From NCBI RefSeq assembly GCF_055900595.2, contig NZ_CM148325.1: a stretch of DNA of 64,000 nucleotides. One strand, written 5' to 3'. The notes under the pieces are model-generated. The model did not search any database, had not been told where the DNA came from, and saw only the letters and a program-made list of their open reading frames with translations. This document shows, piece by piece, positions 4,872-45,181 of the stretch (its first letter is position 1; the number at the start of each line of letters is the position of its first letter). The translations under genes were made by a program, and so were the position numbers.

Positions 4872-5712
4872 GTTCCAGAATGTAGTGATTGTCACTATCG
4901 TCGGTTGGCTTGTGTTGTTTGTCTTTCTGCCCAACCTGATGATCATTGGCACCAGCTTTTTGACCCGCGACGACGCCAGTTTCGTCAAAATGGTCTTTAC
5001 GCTGGATAACTACACGCGTCTGCTCGATCCGCTCTATTTTGAAGTGCTATTGCACTCGCTGAATATGGCGCTGATCGCCACCCTCGCCTGCCTGGTGCTG
5101 GGCTATCCCTTTGCCTGGTTTCTGGCGAAGCTGCCACACAAGGTGCGTCCGCTGCTGCTGTTTCTGCTGATTGTTCCGTTCTGGACCAACTCATTGATTC
5201 GTATCTACGGGCTGAAAATTTTCCTCAGCACCAAAGGCTATCTCAACGAGTTTTTGCTCTGGCTGGGCGTTATCGATACACCAATTCGCATTATGTTCAC
5301 ACCCAGTGCGGTGATTATCGGTCTGGTTTACATTCTGCTGCCGTTTATGGTGATGCCGCTGTACTCCAGTATCGAAAAACTGGATAAGCCGTTGCTGGAG
5401 GCGGCGCGCGATCTCGGTGCCAGCAAGTTGCAGACCTTTATCCGTATCATTATCCCACTGACGATGCCGGGGATTATTGCCGGATGTCTGCTGGTGATGC
5501 TGCCAGCGATGGGCCTGTTCTATGTGTCTGACCTGATGGGCGGTGCGAAAAACCTGCTGATTGGTAACGTCATCAAGGTCCAGTTCCTCAATATTCGTGA
5601 CTGGCCGTTTGGTGCTGCCACCAGCATTACGCTGACTATCGTAATGGGCCTGATGTTGCTGGTTTACTGGCGCGCTTCTCGTCTGCTGAATAAGAAGGTG
5701 GAACTCGAATGA
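4855..5712 (+). CDS. potB: Spermidine/putrescine ABC transporter permease
   Basis: Polytopic membrane ORF; ATG at 4855 overlaps potA by 17 nt; an in-frame GTG at 4885 would give the 275-aa form I recall for K-12, start not resolved. Confidence 0.92.
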
Positions 5713-22297: not shown

Positions 22298-22435
22298 GTA
22301 GGCCTGATAAGACGCGAGCGGCGTCGCATCAGGCACATTGCCAGTGTCGGATGCGGCGTGAACGCCCTATCCGACCTACAGAATTTACAGAATCTGGAAC
22401 GCATCAGGTATCAGCAAGGTTACCTGATGCGACGA
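22298..22435. repeat. Cluster of REP-like palindromes, ndh-ycfP intergenic
   Basis: gtaggcctgataagacgcgagcggcgtcgcatcaggc, tgtcggatgcggcgtgaacgccctatccgacctac, catcaggta...tacctgatg. Confidence 0.65.
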
Positions 22436-26575: not shown

Positions 26576-28765
26576 ATGCTTTCAACACAATTTAACAGGG
26601 ATAATCAACATCAAACCACCTCCAAACCGTCACTGCTTGCCGCCTGCATAGCACTGGCACTCTTACCTTCCGCCGCTTTTGCTGCACCAGCCACTGAAGA
26701 AACGGTGATTGTTGAGGGTTCCGCCACTACTCCAGTTGATGACGAAAATGATTACAGCGTAACGTCTACCTCTGCGGGTACCAAAATGCAGATGACTCAA
26801 CGTGATATTCCTCAGTCGGTCACTATTGTTAGTCAGCAGCGGATGGAAGATCAGCAGTTACAAACGCTGGGCGAAGTGATGGAAAACACGCTGGGGATCA
26901 GCAAAAGTCAGGCGGATTCCGATCGTGCTCTTTATTATTCCCGCGGATTCCAGATCGATAACTATATGGTTGATGGTATCCCCACCTATTTTGAATCGCG
27001 CTGGAATCTGGGCGACGCACTTTCTGATATGGCACTGTTTGAACGCGTAGAAGTAGTGCGTGGCGCGACAGGACTCATGACCGGTACGGGTAATCCATCT
27101 GCGGCAATTAATATGGTTCGAAAACACGCGACCAGTCGTGAATTTAAAGGCGATGTCTCGGCAGAATACGGTAGCTGGAACAAAGAACGGTATGTGGCGG
27201 ATTTACAAAGTCCACTCACCGAAGATGGTAAAATCCGCGCGCGAATTGTCGGCGGCTACCAGAATAACGACTCATGGCTGGACCGCTACAACAGTGAAAA
27301 GACCTTCTTCTCCGGCATTGTTGATGCTGATTTAGGCGATCTTACGACGCTTTCAGCCGGTTACGAATATCAGCGCATTGATGTTAATAGCCCAACGTGG
27401 GGCGGTTTACCGCGCTGGAATACTGATGGCAGCAGCAACAGTTACGATCGCGCACGCAGTACCGCACCTGACTGGGCGTACAACGATAAAGAGATCAACA
27501 AGGTCTTTATGACCCTGAAGCAGCGGTTTGCTGATACCTGGCAAGCGACACTGAATGCCACCCACTCCGAAGTCGAATTTGACAGCAAAATGATGTATGT
27601 CGATGCCTATGTAAACAAAGCGGATGGTATGCTGGTTGGGCCATACAGTAATTATGGACCTGGCTTTGATTATGTCGGCGGCACCGGTTGGAACAGCGGC
27701 AAACGTAAAGTTGATGCGCTGGATTTGTTCGCTGACGGTAGTTATGAATTGTTTGGTCGTCAGCACAATCTCATGTTTGGTGGCAGTTACAGCAAACAAA
27801 ACAATCGTTACTTCAGTTCATGGGCCAACATCTTCCCGGATGAAATTGGCAGTTTCTACAACTTTAATGGCAATTTCCCACAAACCGACTGGTCACCACA
27901 GAATCTGGCGCAGGACGATACCACACATATGAAATCGTTATATGCTGCCACTCGTGTCACCCTTGCCGATCCGCTGCATCTGATCCTCGGCGCACGTTAT
28001 ACCAACTGGCGGGTTGATACGCTGACTTATAGCATGGAGAAAAACCACACCACGCCTTATGCTGGACTGGTGTTTGACATCAATGATAACTGGTCGACCT
28101 ACGCCAGCTATACCTCTATTTTCCAGCCGCAAAATGACCGTGACAGTTCAGGCAAATATCTGGCTCCAATCACCGGTAACAACTACGAGCTGGGTCTGAA
28201 ATCGGACTGGATGAATAGCCGTCTGACCACCACGTTAGCCATCTTCCGTATTGAGCAGGATAATGTCGCTCAGTCCACCGGTACACCTATCCCCGGCAGC
28301 AACGGCGAAACCGCCTATAAAGCGGTGGATGGGACAGTCAGTAAAGGTGTGGAATTTGAACTCAACGGCGCAATTACCGACAACTGGCAGCTGACGTTTG
28401 GCGCAACGCGCTATATTGCAGAAGATAACGAAGGAAACGCCGTTAATCCTAATCTGCCACGCACCACGGTTAAAATGTTCACCAGCTATCGGTTGCCTGT
28501 CATGGCAGAGTTGACGGTCGGCGGTGGTGTTAACTGGCAAAATCGCGTGTATACCGACACCGTGACACCGTATGGCACCTTCCGCGCCGAGCAAGGTAGC
28601 TACGCGCTGGTGGATCTCTTCACCCGCTACCAGGTGACGAAAAACTTCTCGTTACAGGGGAACGTCAATAACCTGTTCGACAAAACCTACGATACGAACG
28701 TGGAAGGTTCTATCGTCTACGGCGCACCGCGTAATTTCAGCATTACCGGCACGTATCAATTCTGA
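26576..28765 (+). CDS. fhuE: TonB-dependent outer-membrane receptor for coprogen/ferrioxamine B/rhodotorulic acid
   Basis: 729 aa; signal peptide, TonB box, terminal ...NFSITGTYQF aromatic C-terminus. Confidence 0.96.
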   Translation: MLSTQFNRDNQHQTTSKPSLLAACIALALLPSAAFAAPATEETVIVEGSATTPVDDENDYSVTSTSAGTKMQMTQRDIPQSVTIVSQQRMEDQQLQTLGEVMENTLGISKSQADSDRALYYSRGFQIDNYMVDGIPTYFESRWNLGDALSDMALFERVEVVRGATGLMTGTGNPSAAINMVRKHATSREFKGDVSAEYGSWNKERYVADLQSPLTEDGKIRARIVGGYQNNDSWLDRYNSEKTFFSGIVDADLGDLTTLSAGYEYQRIDVNSPTWGGLPRWNTDGSSNSYDRARSTAPDWAYNDKEINKVFMTLKQRFADTWQATLNATHSEVEFDSKMMYVDAYVNKADGMLVGPYSNYGPGFDYVGGTGWNSGKRKVDALDLFADGSYELFGRQHNLMFGGSYSKQNNRYFSSWANIFPDEIGSFYNFNGNFPQTDWSPQNLAQDDTTHMKSLYAATRVTLADPLHLILGARYTNWRVDTLTYSMEKNHTTPYAGLVFDINDNWSTYASYTSIFQPQNDRDSSGKYLAPITGNNYELGLKSDWMNSRLTTTLAIFRIEQDNVAQSTGTPIPGSNGETAYKAVDGTVSKGVEFELNGAITDNWQLTFGATRYIAEDNEGNAVNPNLPRTTVKMFTSYRLPVMAELTVGGGVNWQNRVYTDTVTPYGTFRAEQGSYALVDLFTRYQVTKNFSLQGNVNNLFDKTYDTNVEGSIVYGAPRNFSITGTYQF

Positions 28766-28785
28766 ATAACACCTGTAATAAATAT

Positions 28786-28809
28786 CCTCCGGCATAGCCG
28801 GAGGTTTTT
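28786..28809 (+). terminator. IS200 end hairpin with T-tract (cctccggc-ata-gccggagg-ttttt)
   Basis: Perfect 8-bp stem plus TTTTT inside the IS right end; would terminate fhuE read-through; copy B equivalent at 35617-35640. Confidence 0.5.
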
Positions 28810-28885
28810 CAAATGCGCCTGTAAGGCTCTGTTACCAGCCGCGCCCTAACAGGCGCATACGATCTGACATTTGCATTCAACTTCG

Positions 28886-29344
28886 TTACTTACGGCCCGT
28901 AAACGGGCTGCCCGGATATGGAATCGATAACTGCTCCCCCATTTTATCCTCTTCAAGCTGGTGCTTTATGTAGTCCTGTATCTTCGCCGTGTTCTTACCC
29001 ACCGTATCGACATAGTACCCTCGGCACCAGAACTCCCTGTTTCTGTATTTGAATTTCAAATCCCCAAACTGCTCGTAAAGCATCAGACTGCTTTTCCCTT
29101 TCAGATATCCCATAAAGCCGGATACGCTCATTTTGGGTGGGATTTCCACAAGCATATGGATATGATCTGCGCAGCACTCTGCTTCCAGAATCCGTACGCT
29201 TTTCCACTCACACAGCTTTCTCAAAATACTGCCTATCGCCCTACGCTTCTCTCCGTAAAACGCCAGTCTTCGGTATTTCGGCGCAAAAACTATGTGATAT
29301 TTACAGTTCCAGCGGGTGTGCGCTAAGCTCTTTTCGTCCCCCAT
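28886..29344 (-). CDS. tnpA: IS200 transposase TnpA (Y1 HUH family)
   Basis: ORF 28886..29395; ATG at 29344 gives MGDEKSLAHTRWNCKYHIVFAPKYRR...HIHMLV (HUH)...CRGYYVDTVG (catalytic Tyr), ~152 aa. Confidence 0.92.
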   Translation of the reverse strand: MGDEKSLAHTRWNCKYHIVFAPKYRRLAFYGEKRRAIGSILRKLCEWKSVRILEAECCADHIHMLVEIPPKMSVSGFMGYLKGKSSLMLYEQFGDLKFKYRNREFWCRGYYVDTVGKNTAKIQDYIKHQLEEDKMGEQLSIPYPGSPFTGRK

Positions 29345-29420
29345 TGGGACCCCCTTTTGATTTCTTGTTTGACACTTGCAGTTGCCAGACCGCAAGGTGT
29401 TTTAACAAATCAAAAGGGGT
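29345..29420 (-). promoter_or_regulatory. IS200 tnpA 5' leader stem-loop that occludes the ribosome-binding site
   Basis: In tnpA sense, ccccuuuugauu pairs with aaucaaaagggg, which covers the SD immediately upstream of the ATG; described for Salmonella IS200. Confidence 0.55.
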
Positions 29421-29456
29421 TTTAATAACTGGCTCAAAGCTGAAAGCTTTCCGGAA

Positions 29457-29480
29457 CCCCCAGCCTAGCTGGGGGTTTTC
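29457..29480. terminator. IS200 left-end perfect hairpin (ccccc-agcctagct-ggggg)
   Basis: Perfect palindrome followed by tttt on the plus strand; IS200 ends carry hairpins that block impinging transcription. Confidence 0.5.
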
Positions 29481-29489
29481 TGTGCACAA

Positions 29490-29512
29490 AAAAGGCAGCC
29501 ATCTGGCTGCCT
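29490..29512 (-). terminator. ptsG rho-independent terminator
   Basis: In ptsG sense, ggcagccagatggctgcc followed by a T-run, then the IS200 end. Confidence 0.7.
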
Positions 29513-29535
29513 TAGTCTCCCCAACGTCTTACGGA

Positions 29536-30969
29536 TTAGTGGTTACGGATGTACTCATCCATCTCGGTTTTCAGGTTATCGGATTTAGTACCGAAAATCG
29601 CCTGAACACCAGAACCAGCAACCACTACGCCCGCTGCGCCCAGTTTCTTCAGGCCAGCCTGATCCACTTTAGACACATCAGCAACGCTGACGCGCAGACG
29701 GGTAATACATGCGTCGAGGTTAGTGATGTTTTCTTTACCACCAAACGCAGCAACCAGAGCCGGTGCCATTTCGCTGGTACCTGTCGCTTTTGCATCATCA
29801 GTCGCGTCTTCACGACCCGGCGTTTTCAGATCCAGTGCTTTAATCAGCACGCGGAAGATGGTGTAGTAAACAATTGCATAACCGATACCGACGATCGGGA
29901 ACAGCCACAGTTTGCTGCTGTTACCAGACAGAACGATGAAGTCGATCAGACCGTGCGAGAACGACGTACCGTCACGCATCCCCAGAAGAATACAGATTGG
30001 GAATGCCAGGCCTGCCAGAATCGCGTGGATGATGTACAGGATAGGCGCAACGAACATGAAGGAGAACTCGATCGGCTCGGTGATACCGGTCAGGAACGAG
30101 GTCAGCGCCGCGGAGATCATGATACCGCCCACTTTCGCGCGGTTTTCCGGTTTAGCAGAGTGCCAGATAGCAATTGCGGCAGCTGGCAGACCGTACATTT
30201 TGAACAGGAAGCCGCCAGACAGTTTACCCGCAGTCGGGTCACCCGCCATATAACGCGGAATGTCGCCGTGGAAAACCTGACCTGCAGCGTTGGTGTATTC
30301 ACCAATCTGCATCTGGAAAGGTACGTTCCAGATGTGGTGCAGACCAAACGGTACCAGGCAACGTTCGATGAAACCGTAAATGCCAAACGCAACTACCGGG
30401 TTCTGGTAAGCAGCCCACTGAGAGAAGGTCTGGATTGCAGAACCAATAGGCGGCCAAATGAAGGACAGCACAACGCCAGTAAATATGGCAGCCAGGCCTG
30501 AAATGATCGGCACAAAGCGTTTACCGGCAAAGAAGCCAAGATACTCAGGCAGCTTAATACGGTAGAAACGGTTAAACATGTACGCTGCGATCGCACCGGA
30601 GATGATCCCCCCGAGTACGCCAGTATCCGCCAGGTGTTTAGAGGCGATTTCTTCAGCAGGTAAATGCAGTACCAGTGGCGCAACCACGGCCATGGTTTTA
30701 ACCATGATGCCATAGGCAACAACTGCGGCCAGCGCGGATACGCCATCGTTATTGGTAAAGCCGAGGGCGACACCGATCGCAAAAATCAGTGGCATGTTTG
30801 CAAAGACGGAACCGCCTGCTTCTGCCATAACATGCGATACAACGGCGGGCAGCCAGCTGAAATTCGCGGAACCGACGCCCAGCAGAATACCTGCGATAGG
30901 CAGTACGGATACCGGCAGCATCAGCGATTTACCGACCTTTTGCAGGTTAGCAAATGCATTCTTAAACAT
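29536..30969 (-). CDS. ptsG: Glucose-specific PTS enzyme IICB
   Basis: 477 aa, [33 protein letters not shown]...; EIIB Cys motif in the C-terminal domain. Confidence 0.97.
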
Positions 30970-31130
30970 AATTGAGAGTGCTCCTGAGTATGGGTGCTTT
31001 TTTTACGTTCTCACGCGTGGCAAGGGGGGAGAGCCTCGCCGTGTACAGGGCATCTAAGCGCCCTTTATTTATTACACAGAGTAAAATAATTCAGTGCCGA
31101 TTTGTTTGACGGCTATCACGTTTCAACTTC
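30970..31130 (-). promoter_or_regulatory. ptsG promoter and 5' UTR (Mlc/CRP-controlled; SgrS target around the RBS)
   Basis: Established K-12 regulation; AT-rich region with TGTGA-like motifs upstream of the ptsG ATG; exact sites not mapped here. Confidence 0.4.
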
Positions 31131-31263
31131 AGATCATTGGAGAAGTTGCACATTTTGACAAAACATATGTCACAATATTTCAAACGTGGTTATTCACCGC
31201 CCAATTTTCGGCGGTGAACTTTACTCGTTTTAGCCATTAATTACGAGCTTTAAAAAAACTCAT

Positions 31264-32061
31264 TCAACGGATGGATTGAAGGCGGGAAGCGTCGATGTGA
31301 AACAGACGGGCGAAGTTATCGGTGGTTACCTGCGCCAGTTCTTCAACGGCAACACCTTTCAACACAGCCATGTATTCTGCAACGTCACGAACCATCGCAG
31401 GTTGATTCTCTTTTCCTCGATGCGGAACCGGTGCAAGGTAAGGTGAGTCAGTTTCTACCAGTAACCGATCGAGGGGGACATAACGCGCGGCATCGCGCAG
31501 TTGCTCCGCATTACGGAAAGTCACAATGCCGGAAAAGGAGATGTAAAATCCGAGATCCAGTAATTTACCCGCCGTTTCTCTGTCCTCTGTAAAACAGTGT
31601 AGTACGCCACCGCAATCCGTCACTTTTTCTTCGCGCAGAATTGCCAGCGTATCGGCGCGGGCGTCACGGGTGTGGACGATAACCGGCTTGTTCAGTTCAC
31701 GACCAATCTGGATATGATGGATGAAGGACTCTTGCTGCCGTACTTTAGTTTCCGGCGTGTAATAATAATCCAACCCGGTTTCACCCAGCGCAACAACGCC
31801 CTCTTCTGCCGCCAGACGGCGTAAATCTTCTACATCGTAGGGATCATTCTGGTTGAGTGGATGCACGCCACAAGAAAATACGACGTTGTCACGTTCGCCT
31901 ACCAGATCCCGCATGTGTAAATAACCCGGTAATGTTGTGGCGACTGCCAGACAAAATTTCACATCGCGTGCGGCGGCTTTCGCCAGAACGTCATCCACGT
32001 CCTTATGCAAAGATTCATAATCCAGACCATCGAGATGGCAGTGTGAGTCGACTAAAAACAT
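31264..32061 (-). CDS. ycfH: TatD-family metal-dependent deoxyribonuclease YcfH
   Basis: ORF 31264..32121; ATG at 32061 gives [11 protein letters not shown]... 265 aa. Confidence 0.93.
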
Positions 32062-32071
32062 GATGTCTCTC

Positions 32072-33076
32072 TTAAAGATGAGGAACCGGTAGCACAACGC
32101 CCGGTTGCAGGTAATGCTCAATACGCAGTAAAAGATCGGTGATGAGAAGCTCTCGGTTAATACCTGTGACAGACATTAACTGTTCACGAATGTGGCAAAC
32201 ATCCCCCAGTATAGCCTGCAGACGCGAGGGAGAAAGATGGTTTGCCAGTTCGACGACCAGGCCCGGCACATCAACATTGGTAACCTGCGCAGCGCCATGA
32301 TGGCGTTTTAGCGCATCCATCAGCAACGTTGCCAGCCAGTGTAAACGCGCCGGAGCTTGTTCATGATTAAGGGCCGCTAGCAGCGAATACCAGTCGCCCG
32401 ATTGCACGCTATATGCCAGCGCCTGACACAATGTTTCACGAGCCTGCCAGATATCTCCCTGAAACAACGCCAGTGCCGCACCAGGCGAACCGGCGCTTAA
32501 GCGCAATGCGGCAAGTAATGCATCCTGTGACATTGTCACTTCGCGTGAAAGCCAGGTCACGGCGTACTGTTCCGGCGGCGGCGCAAGGTAATGTAACCGA
32601 CAACGACTACGTAATGTTGCCAGTAAACGTTCAGGCTCGCGGGTAGCAAGGAAAAACCAGGTTTCTGCTGGCGGCTCTTCAAGCGTTTTCAGCAATGCGT
32701 TAGCCGCGGCGTCAGTCAGTAAGGCAGCATCGGTTACCCAGACAACTTTCGCACCACCTAAGCGTGCGTGCTCATTTAACTTTTCGGTGACTTCACGTAC
32801 CGCATCAATGCCCAGCGCATTTTTCCCTTTTTCGGGAGCCAGGGTGTAATAATCGGGATGCGTGCCAGCCTGCATCAACTGACATCCACGACAGTGACCG
32901 CAACTTTTGTGGCCCTGCGGTTGTTGGCAGAGTAAATAACGGCTCAGGGCGTAGATTAAAGCATCCTCGCCCATACCCGGTAACGCCTGAATGAGTAGCG
33001 CATGGTGACCTCTTCCGGCCTGATAGCTGGCTACCAGTTTTTCGAAATCAGGTCGTAACCATGGATACCATCTCAT
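32072..33076 (-). CDS. holB: DNA polymerase III delta-prime subunit
   Basis: ORF to 33097; ATG at 33076 gives [15 protein letters not shown]... 334 aa; Zn-module Cys cluster CGHCRGC. Confidence 0.95.
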
Positions 33077-33714
33077 GCGTCCAACTCCTTCACCCAATTG
33101 GTCACGGTAGTGCGGATTGCATCCATCACGGACTCCAGCGGCTGGGTGGCATCAATGGTATGAATGCTTTTATCTTGTGCTGCCACTTCCAGATAGCGGG
33201 CGCGGGTGCGATTAAAGAAATCGAAAGACTCTTGCTCAATACGATCCAGCTCGCCGCGCGCACGCGCGCGTTTTAAGCCAACTTCCGGGGTAACATCGAG
33301 ATAGAGCGTTAAGTCGGGGCGAAAATCCCCGAGAACAGCATCACGCAATGTTGCCAGCATATGTTGGTCAATACCACGTCCGCCGCCCTGATACGCCTGA
33401 GTGGAGAGATCGTGGCGATCGCCAATCACCCAGGTGCCGTTAGTCAGCGCAGGTTTGATGACCGTTTCTACCAGTTGAACGCGCGCGGCATAAAACATCA
33501 GAACTTCGGCTTTATCGGTAATGACTTCATCGCCTACCGATTTGATATCCAGCACCAGGCTTCTTAACTTTTCGGCAAGTTGCGTACCGCCAGGTTCCCG
33601 AGTGAAAACCATGTCGCGGATACCCAGTTGCTCGAGCGTCTCAACCACCACGTTACGCGCGGTAGTTTTGCCTGCGCCTTCCAGCCCCTCAATGACGATA
33701 TACTTACTGCGCAT
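33073..33714 (-). CDS. tmk: Thymidylate kinase
   Basis: 213 aa, [18 protein letters not shown] (P-loop); stop overlaps holB start by 4 nt. Confidence 0.96.
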
Positions 33715-34726
33715 TTTTTTCCTTAAGCACTTTCAGATAATCCTGCACAGACTTGTTATGACTGGCAAGATTGGTATTAAACGTGTGACCACCTTTACCA
33801 TCGGCCACAAAATAGAGATACGGCGTTTTTGCCGGATGCGCAGCAGCCTTCAGCGAATCCGCCCCCGGCGTCGCTATCGCACCTGGCGGCAAACCGGTAA
33901 TGGTATAGGTGTTATACGCTGTCGGCGTTTCCAGGTCTGCACGAGAAAGTTTGCCATTATAACGCTCTCCCATCCCGTAAATCACGGTCGGGTCGGTCTG
34001 CAGGCGCATACCAATGCGTAAACGGTTGATAAATACCGAGGCAACCTGATCGCGTTCGCTGGAAACGGCGGTTTCTTTTTCGATAATTGATGCCATCGTC
34101 ACCAACTGGTTTTTATCTTTATAAGGCAGACCGTCAGCACGCCCTTCCCAGGCGCTATCGACCGCTTTCACCATTTTCTTGTGTGCACGCTTGAGTAACG
34201 CGACATCTGTGGTATTAGCGGTATACATCCAGGTGTCTGGCCAGAACCAACCTTCAATCCACTCCGGGTTTTCCAGTTCAAGTGCCTGCGCTACGGTGGC
34301 GTACTTATCGTCGCTCAGCGTGTGCTTGATATACGGGGCCTCACGCAATTGCTTGAGGTAATCGCTCAAACGCATCCCTTCTACCAGTCGCAGAGGGAAC
34401 TGTGCTTCTTTACCGCTTTCCAGCAATTTCAGCATCTCACGTACGGTCATCTGCGGTGTAAAGCGGTAAGTCCCGGCTTTAAAGTGAGAAAGATCCGGTT
34501 CGATACGCAGCAGCCATTGAAAAACCCGTGGGCGATTGATGATCTTATCGGCGTAAAGCTGTTCACCGAGCGCCAGACGTCCGGTCCCTGGCTTCAGGGT
34601 AAATATCGTCTCTTCTTTGATAAGCAATTTGCTGTCGGCAAGATGGCGAACCTTCCAGACGCCCACACCAGCGGCGATACCCAGTACCACCAGCAATAAC
34701 AAGATAATCAATAACACTTTTTTCAT
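33704..34726 (-). CDS. mltG: Endolytic murein transglycosylase MltG (YceG)
   Basis: 340 aa with N-terminal TM helix ([24 protein letters not shown]). Confidence 0.94.
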
Positions 34727-34728
34727 GA

Positions 34729-35538
34729 CTAATTCGGGCGCTCACAAAGTGGGGCTAAATATTCATATAACGTTGCTGACGAAAAGGAGACATCGCCACA
34801 GGCACGTACGGGCATCACTGGCATTAACGCATTACAAATAACCATCTCATCTGCCTGCAACGCCTCTTCCAGAGTGGCTTGCACTTCGACAAGCTGATAA
34901 GAGGATTGTGCCAGTAAACGGATACAGAATTGTCGCATAATGCCGTTAACACCTGCCTGCTCTAGTCGCGGCGTATAAACTACATTGCCCTTCCGCCAGA
35001 ACAAATTAGCCGCACAGCATTCCGTAACCCACCCTTCGCTGTCAAGGACCAGCGCCTCATCAGCGTTTGTCTGCTCAAGATGAGAGCGGATCAATACTTG
35101 TTCAAGCCGATTAAGATGTTTAATACCTGCAAGATGAGGATTGCGCCCCAGCCGCACCGGGCTTAGCGCCAACATCATCCCCTCGTTACGCAAACGATCG
35201 TAATGTGCAGGATAAGCCGTAACGGAGAGAATCCGCGTTGCCGGTCCGCTGTTCAATGTGCTGTACCCTCGCCCGCCACTACCGCGACTGATCACGACCT
35301 TCAGCACACCATTCTGCTGTTCTGCTGCCAGCGTTTTCATCTCTTGTTCAAGCTGAGGCCAGAAGTCACAGGAAATCATCAACCGCTGACAAGCATCCTG
35401 TAGTCGCTGGATATGTGCCGATAACAAACTGACTTTACCGTCGATAACTCTGGCGGTGGTAAAACAACCATCACCAAACTGCGTTGCTCGATCGCTTACT
35501 GCCAGCGATTCCTGCTTATGACCGTTAATTAAGAACAT
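34729..35538 (-). CDS. pabC: Aminodeoxychorismate lyase
   Basis: 269 aa, [31 protein letters not shown]...; PLP fold-type IV. Confidence 0.95.
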
Positions 35539-35606
35539 ACCGGCTCCTTATCAGAGAATTGTTAGTGTGGCAGCATGTTCACTACAGAACAAGTCGGAAT
35601 AAAAGC

Positions 35607-36320
35607 TAATAAATATCCTCCGGCATAGCCGGAGGTTTTTCAAATGCGCCTGTAAGGCTCTGTTACCAGCCGCGCCCTAACAGGCGCATACGATCTGACA
35701 TTTGCATTCAACTTCGTTACTTACGGCCCGTAAACGGGCTGCCCGGATATGGAATCGATAACTGCTCCCCCATTTTATCCTCTTCAAGCTGGTGCTTTAT
35801 GTAGTCCTGTATCTTCGCCGTGTTCTTACCCACCGTATCGACATAGTACCCTCGGCACCAGAACTCCCTGTTTCTGTATTTGAATTTCAAATCCCCAAAC
35901 TGCTCGTAAAGCATCAGACTGCTTTTCCCTTTCAGATATCCCATAAAGCCGGATACGCTCATTTTGGGTGGGATTTCCACAAGCATATGGATATGATCTG
36001 CGCAGCACTCTGCTTCCAGAATCCGTACGCTTTTCCACTCACACAGCTTTCTCAAAATACTGCCTATCGCCCTACGCTTCTCTCCGTAAAACGCCAGTCT
36101 TCGGTATTTCGGCGCAAAAACTATGTGATATTTACAGTTCCAGCGGGTGTGCGCTAAGCTCTTTTCGTCCCCCATTGGGACCCCCTTTTGATTTCTTGTT
36201 TGACACTTGCAGTTGCCAGACCGCAAGGTGTTTTAACAAATCAAAAGGGGTTTTAATAACTGGCTCAAAGCTGAAAGCTTTCCGGAACCCCCAGCCTAGC
36301 TGGGGGTTTTCTGTGCACAA
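35607..36320 (-). mobile_element. IS200-family insertion sequence, copy B (714 bp), same orientation as copy A
   Basis: Matches 28776-29489; flanks diverge at 35606/28775 and 36321/29490. Confidence 0.9.
35717..36175 (-). CDS. tnpA: IS200 transposase TnpA (Y1 HUH family), copy B
   Basis: Protein identical to copy A; same RBS-occluding stem-loop at 36176-36251. Confidence 0.92.
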   Translation of the reverse strand: MGDEKSLAHTRWNCKYHIVFAPKYRRLAFYGEKRRAIGSILRKLCEWKSVRILEAECCADHIHMLVEIPPKMSVSGFMGYLKGKSSLMLYEQFGDLKFKYRNREFWCRGYYVDTVGKNTAKIQDYIKHQLEEDKMGEQLSIPYPGSPFTGRK

Positions 36321-36347
36321 GAAAAAAGGCCCGCAAGCGGACCTTTT
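36321..36347 (-). terminator. fabF rho-independent terminator
   Basis: In fabF sense, ggtccgc-ttgc-gggcc followed by ttttttc, then IS200 copy B. Confidence 0.65.
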
Positions 36348-42767: not shown

Positions 42768-42795
42768 TTAACTTTGTAACGTCATAGAGTCAAAG

Positions 42796-42950
42796 AAAAA
42801 GGCAGCCTGTGGTTGCCTTTTGCCAATAATTCGCACACATTGCGGGTTACTGCTTTATTTTCGTTCAGTGCTGATAACGAACATCAACCTGCAAAACGAA
42901 GCGCATAGTTTAAAATGGCTATCATCAATACGCTATATCTGTTGGAAAAA
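42796..42950 (-). ncRNA. sraB: Candidate small RNA SraB in the yceD-yceF intergenic region
   Basis: K-12 has sRNA SraB between yceF and yceD, codirectional with yceD (recalled). A terminator-like hairpin with T-tract on the minus strand (42796-42821) lies ~40 nt upstream of the yceD ATG; the 5' end is not determined from sequence. Confidence 0.35.
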
Positions 42951-42953
42951 AAT

Positions 42954-43538
42954 ATGCCTAAACTTATTTTAGCCTCCACCTCGCCCTGGCGTCGCGCTCT
43001 TCTGGAAAAACTGCAAATCTCTTTTGAATGTGCAGCACCCGAGGTCGACGAAACCCCACGCAGTGACGAATCACCGCGACAGTTGGTGCTTCGACTGGCG
43101 CAGGAAAAAGCGCAATCTCTGGCGTCACGTTATCCGGATCATTTAATTATTGGTTCAGACCAGGTATGTGTTCTTGATGGCGAAATCACCGGTAAACCGT
43201 TAACGGAAGAAAATGCCCGTCTGCAATTACGCAAAGCCAGCGGCAATATCGTCACCTTCTATACTGGCCTGGCGTTGTTTAATTCGGCGAATGGGCATCT
43301 GCAAACAGAAGTGGAGCCTTTTGACGTCCATTTCCGTCACCTGAGCGAGGCGGAGATTGATAATTACGTGCGTAAGGAGCATCCCCTGCACTGTGCGGGT
43401 AGCTTTAAGAGTGAAGGATTTGGCATTACGCTGTTTGAGCGTTTAGAAGGGCGTGACCCTAACACGCTGGTTGGTTTACCGCTAATCGCGCTGTGTCAGA
43501 TGTTACGTCGGGAAGGGAAAAATCCGCTGATGGGATAG
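42954..43538 (+). CDS. yceF: Maf-like nucleoside triphosphate pyrophosphatase YceF
   Basis: ORF 42915..43538; ATG at 42954 gives [20 protein letters not shown]... 194 aa (Maf family). Confidence 0.92.
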
Positions 43539-44820: not shown

Positions 44821-45181
44821 GTTTCCGTGTCCATCCTTGTTAAAACAAGAAATTTTACGGAATAACCCATTTTGCCCGACCGATCATCCACGCAGCAATG
44901 GCGTAAGACGTATTGATCTTTCAGGCAGTTAGCGGGCTGCGGGTTGCAGTCCTTACCGGTAGATGGAAATATTTCTGGAGAGTAATACCCAGTCTGTTTC
45001 TTTGATAATTGCGCTGTTTTTCCGCATGAAAAACGGGCAACCGACACTCTGCGCCTCTTTGAGCTGACGATAACCGTGAGGTTGGCGACGCGACTAGACA
45101 CGAGGCCATCGGTTCACACCCGGAAAGGCGTTACTTTGCCCGCAGCTTAGTCGTCAATGTAAGAATAATGAGTAAGTTACG
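44821..45181 (+). promoter_or_regulatory. rne promoter and long 5' UTR (RNase E autoregulation region); boundaries approximate
   Basis: Established: the K-12 rne mRNA has a ~361-nt leader containing hairpins that mediate autoregulation; 5' boundary here is by analogy only. Confidence 0.5.

Follow-up and report, generated by a model that had tools for sequence, protein, structure and literature searches.

Arrangement of the locus

The window (the whole 64,000-nt stretch of contig NZ_CM148325.1 that was analysed) harbors two copies of the insertion sequence IS200, here termed A and B, which lie in direct orientation on either side of the gene block ptsG-ycfH-holB-tmk-mltG(yceG)-pabC. The neighbors of the block are fhuE (plus strand) on the left and fabF (minus strand) on the right. 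The features, in window coordinates, are:

28777-29487, minus strand: 711-bp IS200 copy A, between the stop codon of fhuE and the terminator of ptsG; the K-12 empty site reads CACCTGT, insertion point, AAAAAAGG
28786-28804, no strand assigned: right-end subterminal hairpin of copy A, CCTCCGGC-ATA-GCCGGAGG, followed on the top strand by ATATTTATT, the IS terminus
28886-29344, minus strand: tnpA of copy A, a 152-aa Y1/HUH transposase (Pfam, NCBIfam, alignment to solved TnpA chains)
29354-29477, minus strand: left-end structures of copy A, namely a terminator-like perfect hairpin (IS nt 11-33) and a 5′UTR stem-loop over the ribosome-binding site; art200/STnc490 region
29488-29513, minus strand: target of copy A, the ptsG intrinsic terminator, AAGGCAGCC-AGAT-GGCTGCCTT plus a T-run, right after which the IS left end begins
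29536-35538, minus strand: block ptsG-ycfH-holB-tmk-mltG(yceG)-pabC, single copy, ancestral order, collinear with K-12 and a close relative
35608-36318, minus strand: 711-bp IS200 copy B, between pabC and the terminator of fabF; boundaries set by K-12 and Z0117EC0005, where the site is empty
35617-35635, no strand assigned: right-end subterminal hairpin of copy B
35717-36175, minus strand: tnpA of copy B, identical to that of copy A by sequence comparison
36185-36308, minus strand: left-end structures of copy B, same as in copy A (Rfam)
36319-36347, minus strand: target of copy B, the fabF intrinsic terminator, AAAAGGTCCGC-TTGC-GGGCCTTTT, then TTCTT, right after which the IS left end begins

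Identity and boundaries of the two copies

In a pairwise comparison, 28776-29489 matches 35607-36320 at all 714 of 714 nucleotides, with an offset of 6831 and in direct orientation, as a sequence-only reading of the window had claimed. The identity ends abruptly on either side, and the pair is the sole long repeat within the 64-kb window. The figure of 714 bp from that reading holds as the length of the repeat but not as that of the mobile unit, which is 711 bp (28777-29487 and 35608-36318) on the basis of the empty sites in K-12 and the close relative Z0117EC0005. The remaining 3 nt of the identity are target bases that lie outside IS200, and a 2-nt TT/AA ambiguity at the boundaries leaves a range of 709-711 bp. 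Alignment of both junctions to K-12 defines both empty sites and confirms that IS200 is absent from them in that strain. In both K-12 and Z0117EC0005, each empty site is exactly the left flank joined to the right flank, with no target duplication, the TT ambiguity at the boundary being also readable as a 2-bp duplication.

Family assignment

Both copies contain an intact minus-strand ORF of 152 aa with the motifs ADHIHMLV and CRGYYVD, which puts the IS left end at the higher coordinate in each case. The remaining ORFs that overlap the element are short and overlap tnpA; in relatives, TnpA is RefSeq protein WP_000502112.1. The protein matches Pfam Y1_Tnp (PF01797, 9.1e-37, model positions 2-121 of 121) and NCBIfam transpos_IS200 (NF033573, 144.4 bits with a cut-off of 55), and it aligns to the solved TnpA chains 2ec2, 2f4f, 2a6m, and 2xm3. 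H61-I62-H63 aligns with DHIH of chains 2ec2 and 2f4f, while the predicted catalytic Y110 in RGYYV aligns with the conserved tyrosine of RSYFV in solved TnpA chains, in agreement with the placement of the HUH motif and catalytic tyrosine first proposed.

The left-end region scores 146 bits against Rfam STnc490 (RF01405, gathering score 56) and spans model positions 1-124 of 124; in copy A, the DNA fold of the left-end structures has a z of -6.05. The right-end hairpin stands 9 nt from the IS terminus. A repeat search found no inverted repeat of at least 100 bp, and the ends GTGCAC... and ...ATTTATT are unrelated. A lack of terminal inverted repeats together with subterminal hairpins at both ends is expected of the IS200 group in the IS200/IS605 family. 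The element is thus a tnpA-only member (no tnpB, ~0.7 kb) of the IS200 group in the IS200/IS605 family, and Pfam, NCBIfam, Rfam, and the TnpA structures all agree with the original naming as IS200.

IS200 elements of this kind are already known. The IS200 of Salmonella and E. coli (WP_000502112.1) has a published length of 707 bp versus 711 bp here, which is the same size class, and both have a single tnpA for a Y1/HUH transposase, no terminal inverted repeats, and no target duplication. The left-end layout agrees with the published map (PMC4513863), which places the perfect hairpin at nt 12-34 (nt 11-33 here) and the 5′UTR stem-loop at nt 69-138 (within nt 69-137 here); the art200/STnc490 region matches its Rfam model end to end. 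There is no difference in kind, and what sets this strain apart is limited to its two insertion sites. The more distant IS608 and ISDra2 have homologous transposases (E values of 3e-19 and 5e-16, solved structures) and share subterminal hairpins as well as insertion 3′ of a short motif without duplication. Unlike the window IS200, they also carry tnpB, and they use TTAC or TTGAT targets with no need for a flanking hairpin, whereas the motif here is T-rich and nearly always follows a GC hairpin.

Occurrence and origin of copy B

IS200 matches that cover at least 80% of the query are present in 2063 of 5426 complete E. coli genomes, and many RefSeq E. coli genomes already have exact 714/714 copies in their annotation. 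The copy A junction (fhuE-ptsG) is found in 9 of the 5426, all of them close relatives with 15-17 IS200 copies each. This IS200 variant at pabC-fabF, the copy B arrangement, is found in 0 of the 5426; none of the nine copy A genomes has copy B, even though their flanks at the site are nearly the same, and no complete RefSeq genome has both copies. The suggestion that the insertions mark a lineage is therefore borne out and sharpened. The nearest clone differs from the window by a prophage at potC/potB.

With a probability of roughly 0.88, a single active IS200 variant (IS200 group, tnpA only) inserted twice, independently, into an E. coli chromosome that is otherwise unremarkable. Copy B is best read as a new insertion rather than as a product of homogenisation because all nine copy A relatives lack it. 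Between the two origins initially offered for the identical copies, recent transposition or homogenisation, the first is favored: Z0117EC0005, with 4 SNPs in 20.6 kb, has copy A and a cleanly empty pabC-fabF site, and the window flanks of copy B match this relative with 0 mismatches in ~6 kb on the left and 1 in ~3.4 kb on the right.

Homogenisation would mean that an older, diverged IS200 at pabC-fabF was overwritten by conversion from another copy. A candidate for the older element is IS200C, an E. coli variant by its RefSeq annotation name, which occupies exactly this nucleotide, in the orientation of copy B, in 221 genomes; these give the best match to the copy B junction query, at 97.3% identity. 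Conversion is also possible among multi-copy insertion sequences, and the relatives hold 15-17 potential donors. IS200C and the window IS200 are of equal length and align without gaps, yet the IS200C of EBJ003 has 27 mismatches over the 714-bp stretch (96.2% identity) and 4 amino-acid differences in TnpA, and all 27 differences would need replacing exactly up to both IS ends. The flanks in EBJ003 are 98.2-98.4% identical to the window (~1.8% diverged), with no gaps across the site, whereas the window flanks match those of the empty-site relative and are only ~98.2% identical to the IS200C-bearing lineage. Furthermore, the nine closest genomes have no IS at pabC-fabF, and the one directly examined has the clean empty site with near-identical flanks on which gene conversion was rejected. 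Homogenisation is consequently very improbable.

IS200/IS605 elements excise precisely, and the absence of copy B from the relatives could in principle reflect loss by excision, which would need to have occurred in all nine, including the more divergent KGu016. The identity of copy B to copy A is instead taken to reflect its youth and not gene conversion, i.e., a recent transposition in this strain's lineage, and this one presence/absence polymorphism suggests that the IS200 variant is active. In the laboratory, however, IS200 is reported to be nearly dormant (PMC4513863).

Misplacement of one copy during assembly, when the multi-copy repeat was resolved, is barely credible, although 0.7-kb repeats are well known to cause misassembly of short reads and relatives hold ~15-17 copies of the element. 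The empty-site sequence is intact on each side of either copy, the junctions are exact to the nucleotide, and both copies occupy the canonical type of target after a terminator T-run. Copy A was assembled independently in 9 complete genomes, and 221 genomes prove the copy B site to be an IS200 target.

The bracketed block

The genes ptsG-ycfH-holB-tmk-mltG-pabC lie between the copies as originally stated, and their K-12 order is kept. The block is 98.3% identical to K-12 with no gaps and the same gene order, and it is collinear with Z0117EC0005 with 0 mismatches inside it. A promoter scan between copy B and pabC gave no consensus match for a pabC promoter.

Unequal crossing-over and amplification between IS200 copies are standard knowledge, and it is predicted that RecA could use the two 711-bp direct repeats to duplicate the 6.1-kb block in tandem; a deletion between them would remove the essential genes holB and tmk. 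Haack and Roth (1995; ref. 49 of PMC13423834) are said to have shown that IS200-IS200 recombination generates duplications in Salmonella. As for the pair itself, it might act as a unit, either as a composite single-strand transposon that reaches from the left end of copy B to the right end of copy A (7.5 kb) and moves ptsG-holB-tmk, or as the trace of an amplified block that was collapsed in assembly. The direct orientation does put the outer left end and the outer right end on the same strand, and IS-flanked amplification is common (PMC13423834). Nevertheless, the block occupies its ancestral K-12 position and order, and no other genome has both copies. No second copy of the block exists within the 64-kb window, and the predicted duplication junction pabC-IS-ptsG, as a synthetic query, is found in 0 of 5426 genomes at a query coverage of at least 80% (maximum coverage, 68%). 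Tandem duplication was rejected on these two counts, and a composite transposon was rejected because the block sits at the ancestral locus, collinear with K-12 and the relative. Single-strand excision, moreover, reportedly declines with element length (Ton-Hoang and colleagues, 2010), which counts against composite movement. That the pair functions as a unit is accordingly most unlikely. Nothing at the locus points to duplication or rearrangement, and what is seen is ordinary insertion-sequence biology.

Insertion next to intrinsic terminators

The left ends of copies A and B both lie directly 3′ of a terminator T-run, that of ptsG and fabF, respectively, and are co-oriented with the terminated gene. 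The same adjacency is seen at 6 of 6 distinct E. coli IS200 sites (ptsG, fabF, fdnI, oppF, pgm, and cutC). In other genera, 107 of 117 unique left-end flanks (~91%) pass a test for a hairpin plus T-run, compared with 6 of 407 control 45-mers; the two terminal T's of the boundary are fixed by definition, and the independent evidence consists of positions -3 to -8 and the hairpin. An A directly 3′ of the right end was rejected as a general rule, being present at 6 of 6 E. coli sites, whereas all four bases occur at this position in Y. pestis. The right-end hairpin of copy A, followed by TTTTT on the plus strand, also resembles a terminator for fhuE. The presence of two IS200 variants at the same pabC-fabF nucleotide and in the same orientation marks this as a recurrent target site. 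Neither the terminator adjacency of both copies nor the recurrent targeting of pabC-fabF appeared in the sequence-only reading.

IS1541 of Yersinia pestis is a close parallel. Full-length copies at the loci retrieved from other genera, most of which are in Y. pestis, share 84-89% identity with the window IS, and IS1541 has the same left-end hairpin sequence as well as the same right-end hairpin and ATATTTATT terminus. It likewise inserts after terminator-like hairpins, and Odaert and colleagues (1998; ref. 73 of PMC4513863) reportedly noted terminator-like stem-loops at 8 of 14 IS1541 sites. Unlike the window IS200, IS1541 reaches a much higher copy number and forms tandem arrays. In these tandem copies, the left end of one abuts the right end of another, so the right end itself serves as a target. 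No terminator targeting was described in the literature searched on IS200 target choice; a right-end-mimic mechanism and its generality across distant genera were likewise not found established there.

Proposed target recognition

By analogy with IS608 and ISDra2, TnpA would excise the top strand (the tnpA sense strand, i.e., the minus strand of the window) as a single-stranded circle, which would then be pasted into the lagging-strand template, on the 3′ side of a short T-rich motif (TTTNTT) that is exposed there. Over the 64 kb, the plus strand has a negative GC skew, which implies that the tnpA sense strand is the lagging-strand template, with replication direction read from the skew. This orientation is consistent with that reported for the IS200/IS605 family, including IS608 and ISDra2 (PMC5027513).

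A terminator, with its hairpin and T-run, appears to resemble the IS200 right end, with its hairpin and ATATTTATT, and such resemblance would account for the choice of site as well as for the fixed orientation. It is tentatively proposed, at somewhat less than even odds, that IS200-group transposases recognise intrinsic terminators structurally, as mimics of their own right end (GC hairpin plus T-rich tail). Every terminator with its T-run on the lagging-strand template would then be a potential docking site, and the conserved GAAAA just 5′ of the left-end hairpin may act as an IS608-style guide for the T-run. Right-end mimicry would explain why two IS200 variants occupy the same nucleotide after the fabF terminator, why IS1541 forms tandem arrays, why most insertions are harmless, and why the orientation relative to the upstream gene is fixed.

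Implications

Together, the two insertions provide a fine-scale clonal marker, in which a small clone (9 of the 5426 complete genomes) is set apart by copy A. Copy B, private to this strain, documents a rare natural transposition of IS200, an element that is usually called dormant. The direct repeats confer a standing potential to duplicate ptsG, holB, and tmk, which is generic for any IS pair. A terminator association was reportedly noted for IS1541 in 1998, and the adjacency described here extends that old observation and opens no new field. It bears on target recognition of IS200 itself. Seen at ~91% of the 117 sites from distant genera and at all 6 of the E. coli sites, terminator adjacency may also help annotation because IS200 ends and empty sites become predictable.

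Identity and setting of the element

A 714-nt sequence occurs twice in the window in the same orientation (28776-29489 and 35607-36320; start-to-start spacing 6831) with 714/714 identity, as the sequence-only reading had described. Identity is lost abruptly at both sides of each repeat copy, and no further long repeats were found in the 64-kb window besides this pair. The two copies, A (between fhuE and ptsG) and B (between pabC and fabF), lie in a gene order that is that of K-12 with the orientation reversed.

26576-28765, + strand, fhuE, left neighbour of copy A
28886-29344, - strand, tnpA ORF of copy A (152 aa, containing ADHIHMLV and CRGYYVD)
between the copies, - strand, the block ptsG, ycfH, holB, tmk, mltG/yceG, pabC
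35717-36175, - strand, tnpA ORF of copy B (152 aa, containing ADHIHMLV and CRGYYVD)
past copy B, fabF, acpP, fabG
22301-22376, - strand, naRNA4 (REP-derived) match
42792-42960, - strand, SraB sRNA
44821-45157, + strand, rne 5'UTR element

The last three are RNA features ordinary for E. coli; the 64-kb window contains no tRNA genes.

The ORF matches Pfam Y1_Tnp over its full length (9.1e-37) and NCBIfam transpos_IS200 (144 bits, cut-off 55). It can be aligned to the solved TnpA proteins of Sulfolobus, IS608, and ISDra2, with H61-I62-H63 on their HUH motif and Y110 on their conserved tyrosine. Both copies also match Rfam STnc490 (IS200 leader plus art200 region) end to end (146 bits, gathering score 56), and together these matches bear out the proposed IS200 identity. 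ssDNA folding of the top strand (tnpA sense strand) gives three structures: IS nt 11-33 pair as a perfect hairpin, a long stem-loop falls within IS nt 69-137, and the right end has a hairpin 9 nt short of the terminus. This fold agrees with the published IS200 map, in which a terminator occupies nt 12-34 and a stem-loop at nt 69-138 sequesters the SD (PMC4513863). The element is an already known IS, because exact copies in many E. coli genomes carry the RefSeq label "IS200/IS605 family transposase" and 2063 of 5426 complete genomes contain a match at ≥80% coverage.

The STnc490 matches (29354-29477 and 36185-36308) lie on the minus strand, the tnpA sense strand, and span the left-end hairpin and the 5'UTR stem-loop. 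The art200/STnc490 sRNA is published as antisense to the tnpA 5'UTR (PMC4513863); therefore, the strand and extent of the STnc490 model do not correspond simply to art200.

Boundaries and insertion behind terminators

Both sites are empty in K-12, as the earlier reading had stated. The K-12 fhuE-ptsG site reads ...CACCTGTAAAAAAGGCAGCC..., and its filled counterpart (IS in square brackets) reads ...CACCTGT[AATAAATATCC...CTGTGCAC]AAAAAAGG.... The empty pabC-fabF site, the same in K-12 and in Z0117EC0005, a close relative carrying copy A, reads ...AAAAGCTAAGAAAAAAGG... and the filled one ...AAAAGCT[AATAAAT...GTGCAC]AAGAAAAAAGG.... Because empty and filled sites align in this way, the mobile unit is 711 bp (28777-29487 and 35608-36318) with no target duplication. 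The 714-nt identity thus stands, but not 714 bp as the mobile unit, the other 3 nt being target bases. A TT/AA dinucleotide can be assigned to either IS end (709-711 bp), an ambiguity that is classical for IS200.

Each copy lies directly behind a terminator. Read along the top strand, AAGGCAGCCAGATGGCTGCCTTTTTT, the ptsG terminator (29488-29513), runs directly into the left end of copy A, and AAAAGGTCCGCTTGCGGGCCTTTTTTCTT, the fabF terminator (36319-36347), into that of copy B. The identical IS occupies four more E. coli sites, after fdnI, oppF, pgm, and cutC, each with a co-oriented upstream gene followed by a GC hairpin, a T-run, and the IS.

A cross-genus scan with the left-end hairpin sequence as query and one genome per species yielded 120 loci (L004-L123), from Yersinia pestis (IS1541), Vibrio, Brenneria, Dickeya, Edwardsiella, Pluralibacter, and several metagenome bins. 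To pass a hairpin plus T-run test, a flank needed (i) a 45-nt minimum free energy of ≤ -8 kcal/mol, (ii) a hairpin foot ≤10 nt from the IS, and (iii) ≥5 T among the last 8 nt. This test was passed by 107 of 117 unique left flanks but by just 6 of the 407 45-mers drawn from these loci as controls; the ten failing flanks are mostly still hairpins, with 4 T. Positions -6 to -4 are 77-97% T, while the last two T's before the IS are set by the boundary definition and carry no independent weight in T counts. Across these loci, the GAAAA (5 nt) preceding the left-end hairpin is conserved, whereas the first ~6 nt of the IS vary. Stem-loops resembling terminators were reportedly present at 8 of 14 IS1541 sites in the study of Odaert et al. 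(1998), who proposed them as hot spots. At several Y. pestis loci, the IS left end abuts the right end of another copy (...CCTCCGGCTATGCCGGAGGATATTTATT followed by GTGCCC...); therefore, the IS right end, with its hairpin and T-rich tail, is itself used as an insertion target.

Head-to-tail IS1541 copies are found in Y. pestis NCTC5923 (L069, L070, L072, L086, L116), the left end of one adjoining ...GGAGGATATTTATT of another. The exact 23-nt enterobacterial IS200 left-end hairpin also appears in bins assigned to very distant phyla (L004-L064, labeled Oxalobacter, Bacillota, Mailhella/Desulfovibrio, Peptococcaceae, Saccharibacteria, and Elusimicrobiaceae), in most cases no more than about 100 nt from the end of a contig. 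Either IS200 may have spread widely by horizontal transfer, or contigs ending in repeats may have been mis-binned.

Proposed mechanism

By analogy with IS608 and ISDra2, the IS would join the 3' side of a T-rich target motif, TTTNTT, whose right-end counterpart is TTTATT; the conserved A-rich GAAAA adjoining the left-end hairpin on its 5' side may recognise this motif. As for the terminator hairpin, its role would be either to present the T-run as ssDNA or to be bound in the manner of a right end. The 64-kb window has a negative GC skew on its + strand, which makes the tnpA sense strand the probable lagging-strand template, the same orientation as that reported for the family (PMC5027513).

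History of the two copies

Of the 5426 genomes, just 9 fully cover a 600-nt query over the fhuE-side junction of copy A (8 at 100% identity, KGu016 at 99.5%), and each has 15-17 IS copies. The equivalent copy B query reaches at best 97.3% identity among the 5426 genomes searched; 221 genomes covering it have IS200C or a close variant at that site, the variant being IS200F in one genome among the matches listed. No other complete genome has both copies. These distributions uphold the pair as a strain or lineage marker, copy B occurring in none with this variant.

Over 20.6 kb, Z0117EC0005 and the window are separated by 4 SNPs; this relative carries copy A, and its pabC-fabF spacer is intact and empty. 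The IS200C-bearing genome EBJ003 aligns with zero gaps across the pabC-fabF site, with 27 mismatches within the 714-bp repeat stretch (96.2% identity) and flanks at 98.2-98.4%. In the simplest history, the ancestor of a small clone gained copy A, copy B was inserted later and only in the window strain, and a different IS200 variant independently struck the same pabC-fabF nucleotide in other lineages. Recent transposition, one of two origins offered earlier, is therefore favoured; the other, homogenisation by gene conversion of an IS already at pabC-fabF, is not supported because the window flanks match those of the empty-site relative Z0117EC0005. Loss of copy B by precise excision in all nine relatives is less parsimonious than this later insertion.

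IS200 copy number in E. coli varies widely (median 2 places per IS200-bearing genome, highest 35), and some genomes with IS200C at pabC-fabF have 20-36 IS200 places per record. Such counts suggest that an element usually called dormant has gone through bursts in particular lineages. Z0117EC0005, the closest complete relative, also carries a lambdoid, Rac-like prophage adjoining potC (integrase, excisionase, racR, dicB, hokD; L128, 12790-30013). The window lacks it at 5687 (potC/potB) and runs on into potB/potA/pepT, judging by matches to other E. coli.

Consequences for host genes and the intervening block

The ptsG and fabF terminators are both left intact because insertion is 3' of the T-run. 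On the + strand, the IS right-end hairpin, CCTCCGGCATAGCCGGAGGTTTTT, is a terminator-like structure 21 nt past the fhuE stop codon. Between copy B and the pabC start codon, 68-69 nt remain, and a search of this stretch gave no consensus promoter. An IS at the same position is tolerated in 221 genomes, which suggests uncompromised expression of the essential tmk and holB.

Duplications arising by recombination between IS200 copies have reportedly been documented in Salmonella (Haack & Roth 1995). In the window, the block is present once, and a synthetic pabC-IS-ptsG junction is found at ≥80% coverage in 0 of 5426 genomes. IS-flanked amplification is described as a common adaptive route (PMC13423834); amplification of the block via the IS200 copies is only a possibility in the window strain. 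In formal terms, the pair could make up a composite single-strand transposon of 7.5 kb, as the outer left and right ends share a strand, but this reading has no support because the block is still at its ancestral locus.

Significance

The sequence-only reading was right in its essentials: this is a known insertion sequence at a strain-specific pair of sites. The main value of the pair is as a clonal marker, and it provides evidence of recent natural IS200 transposition.
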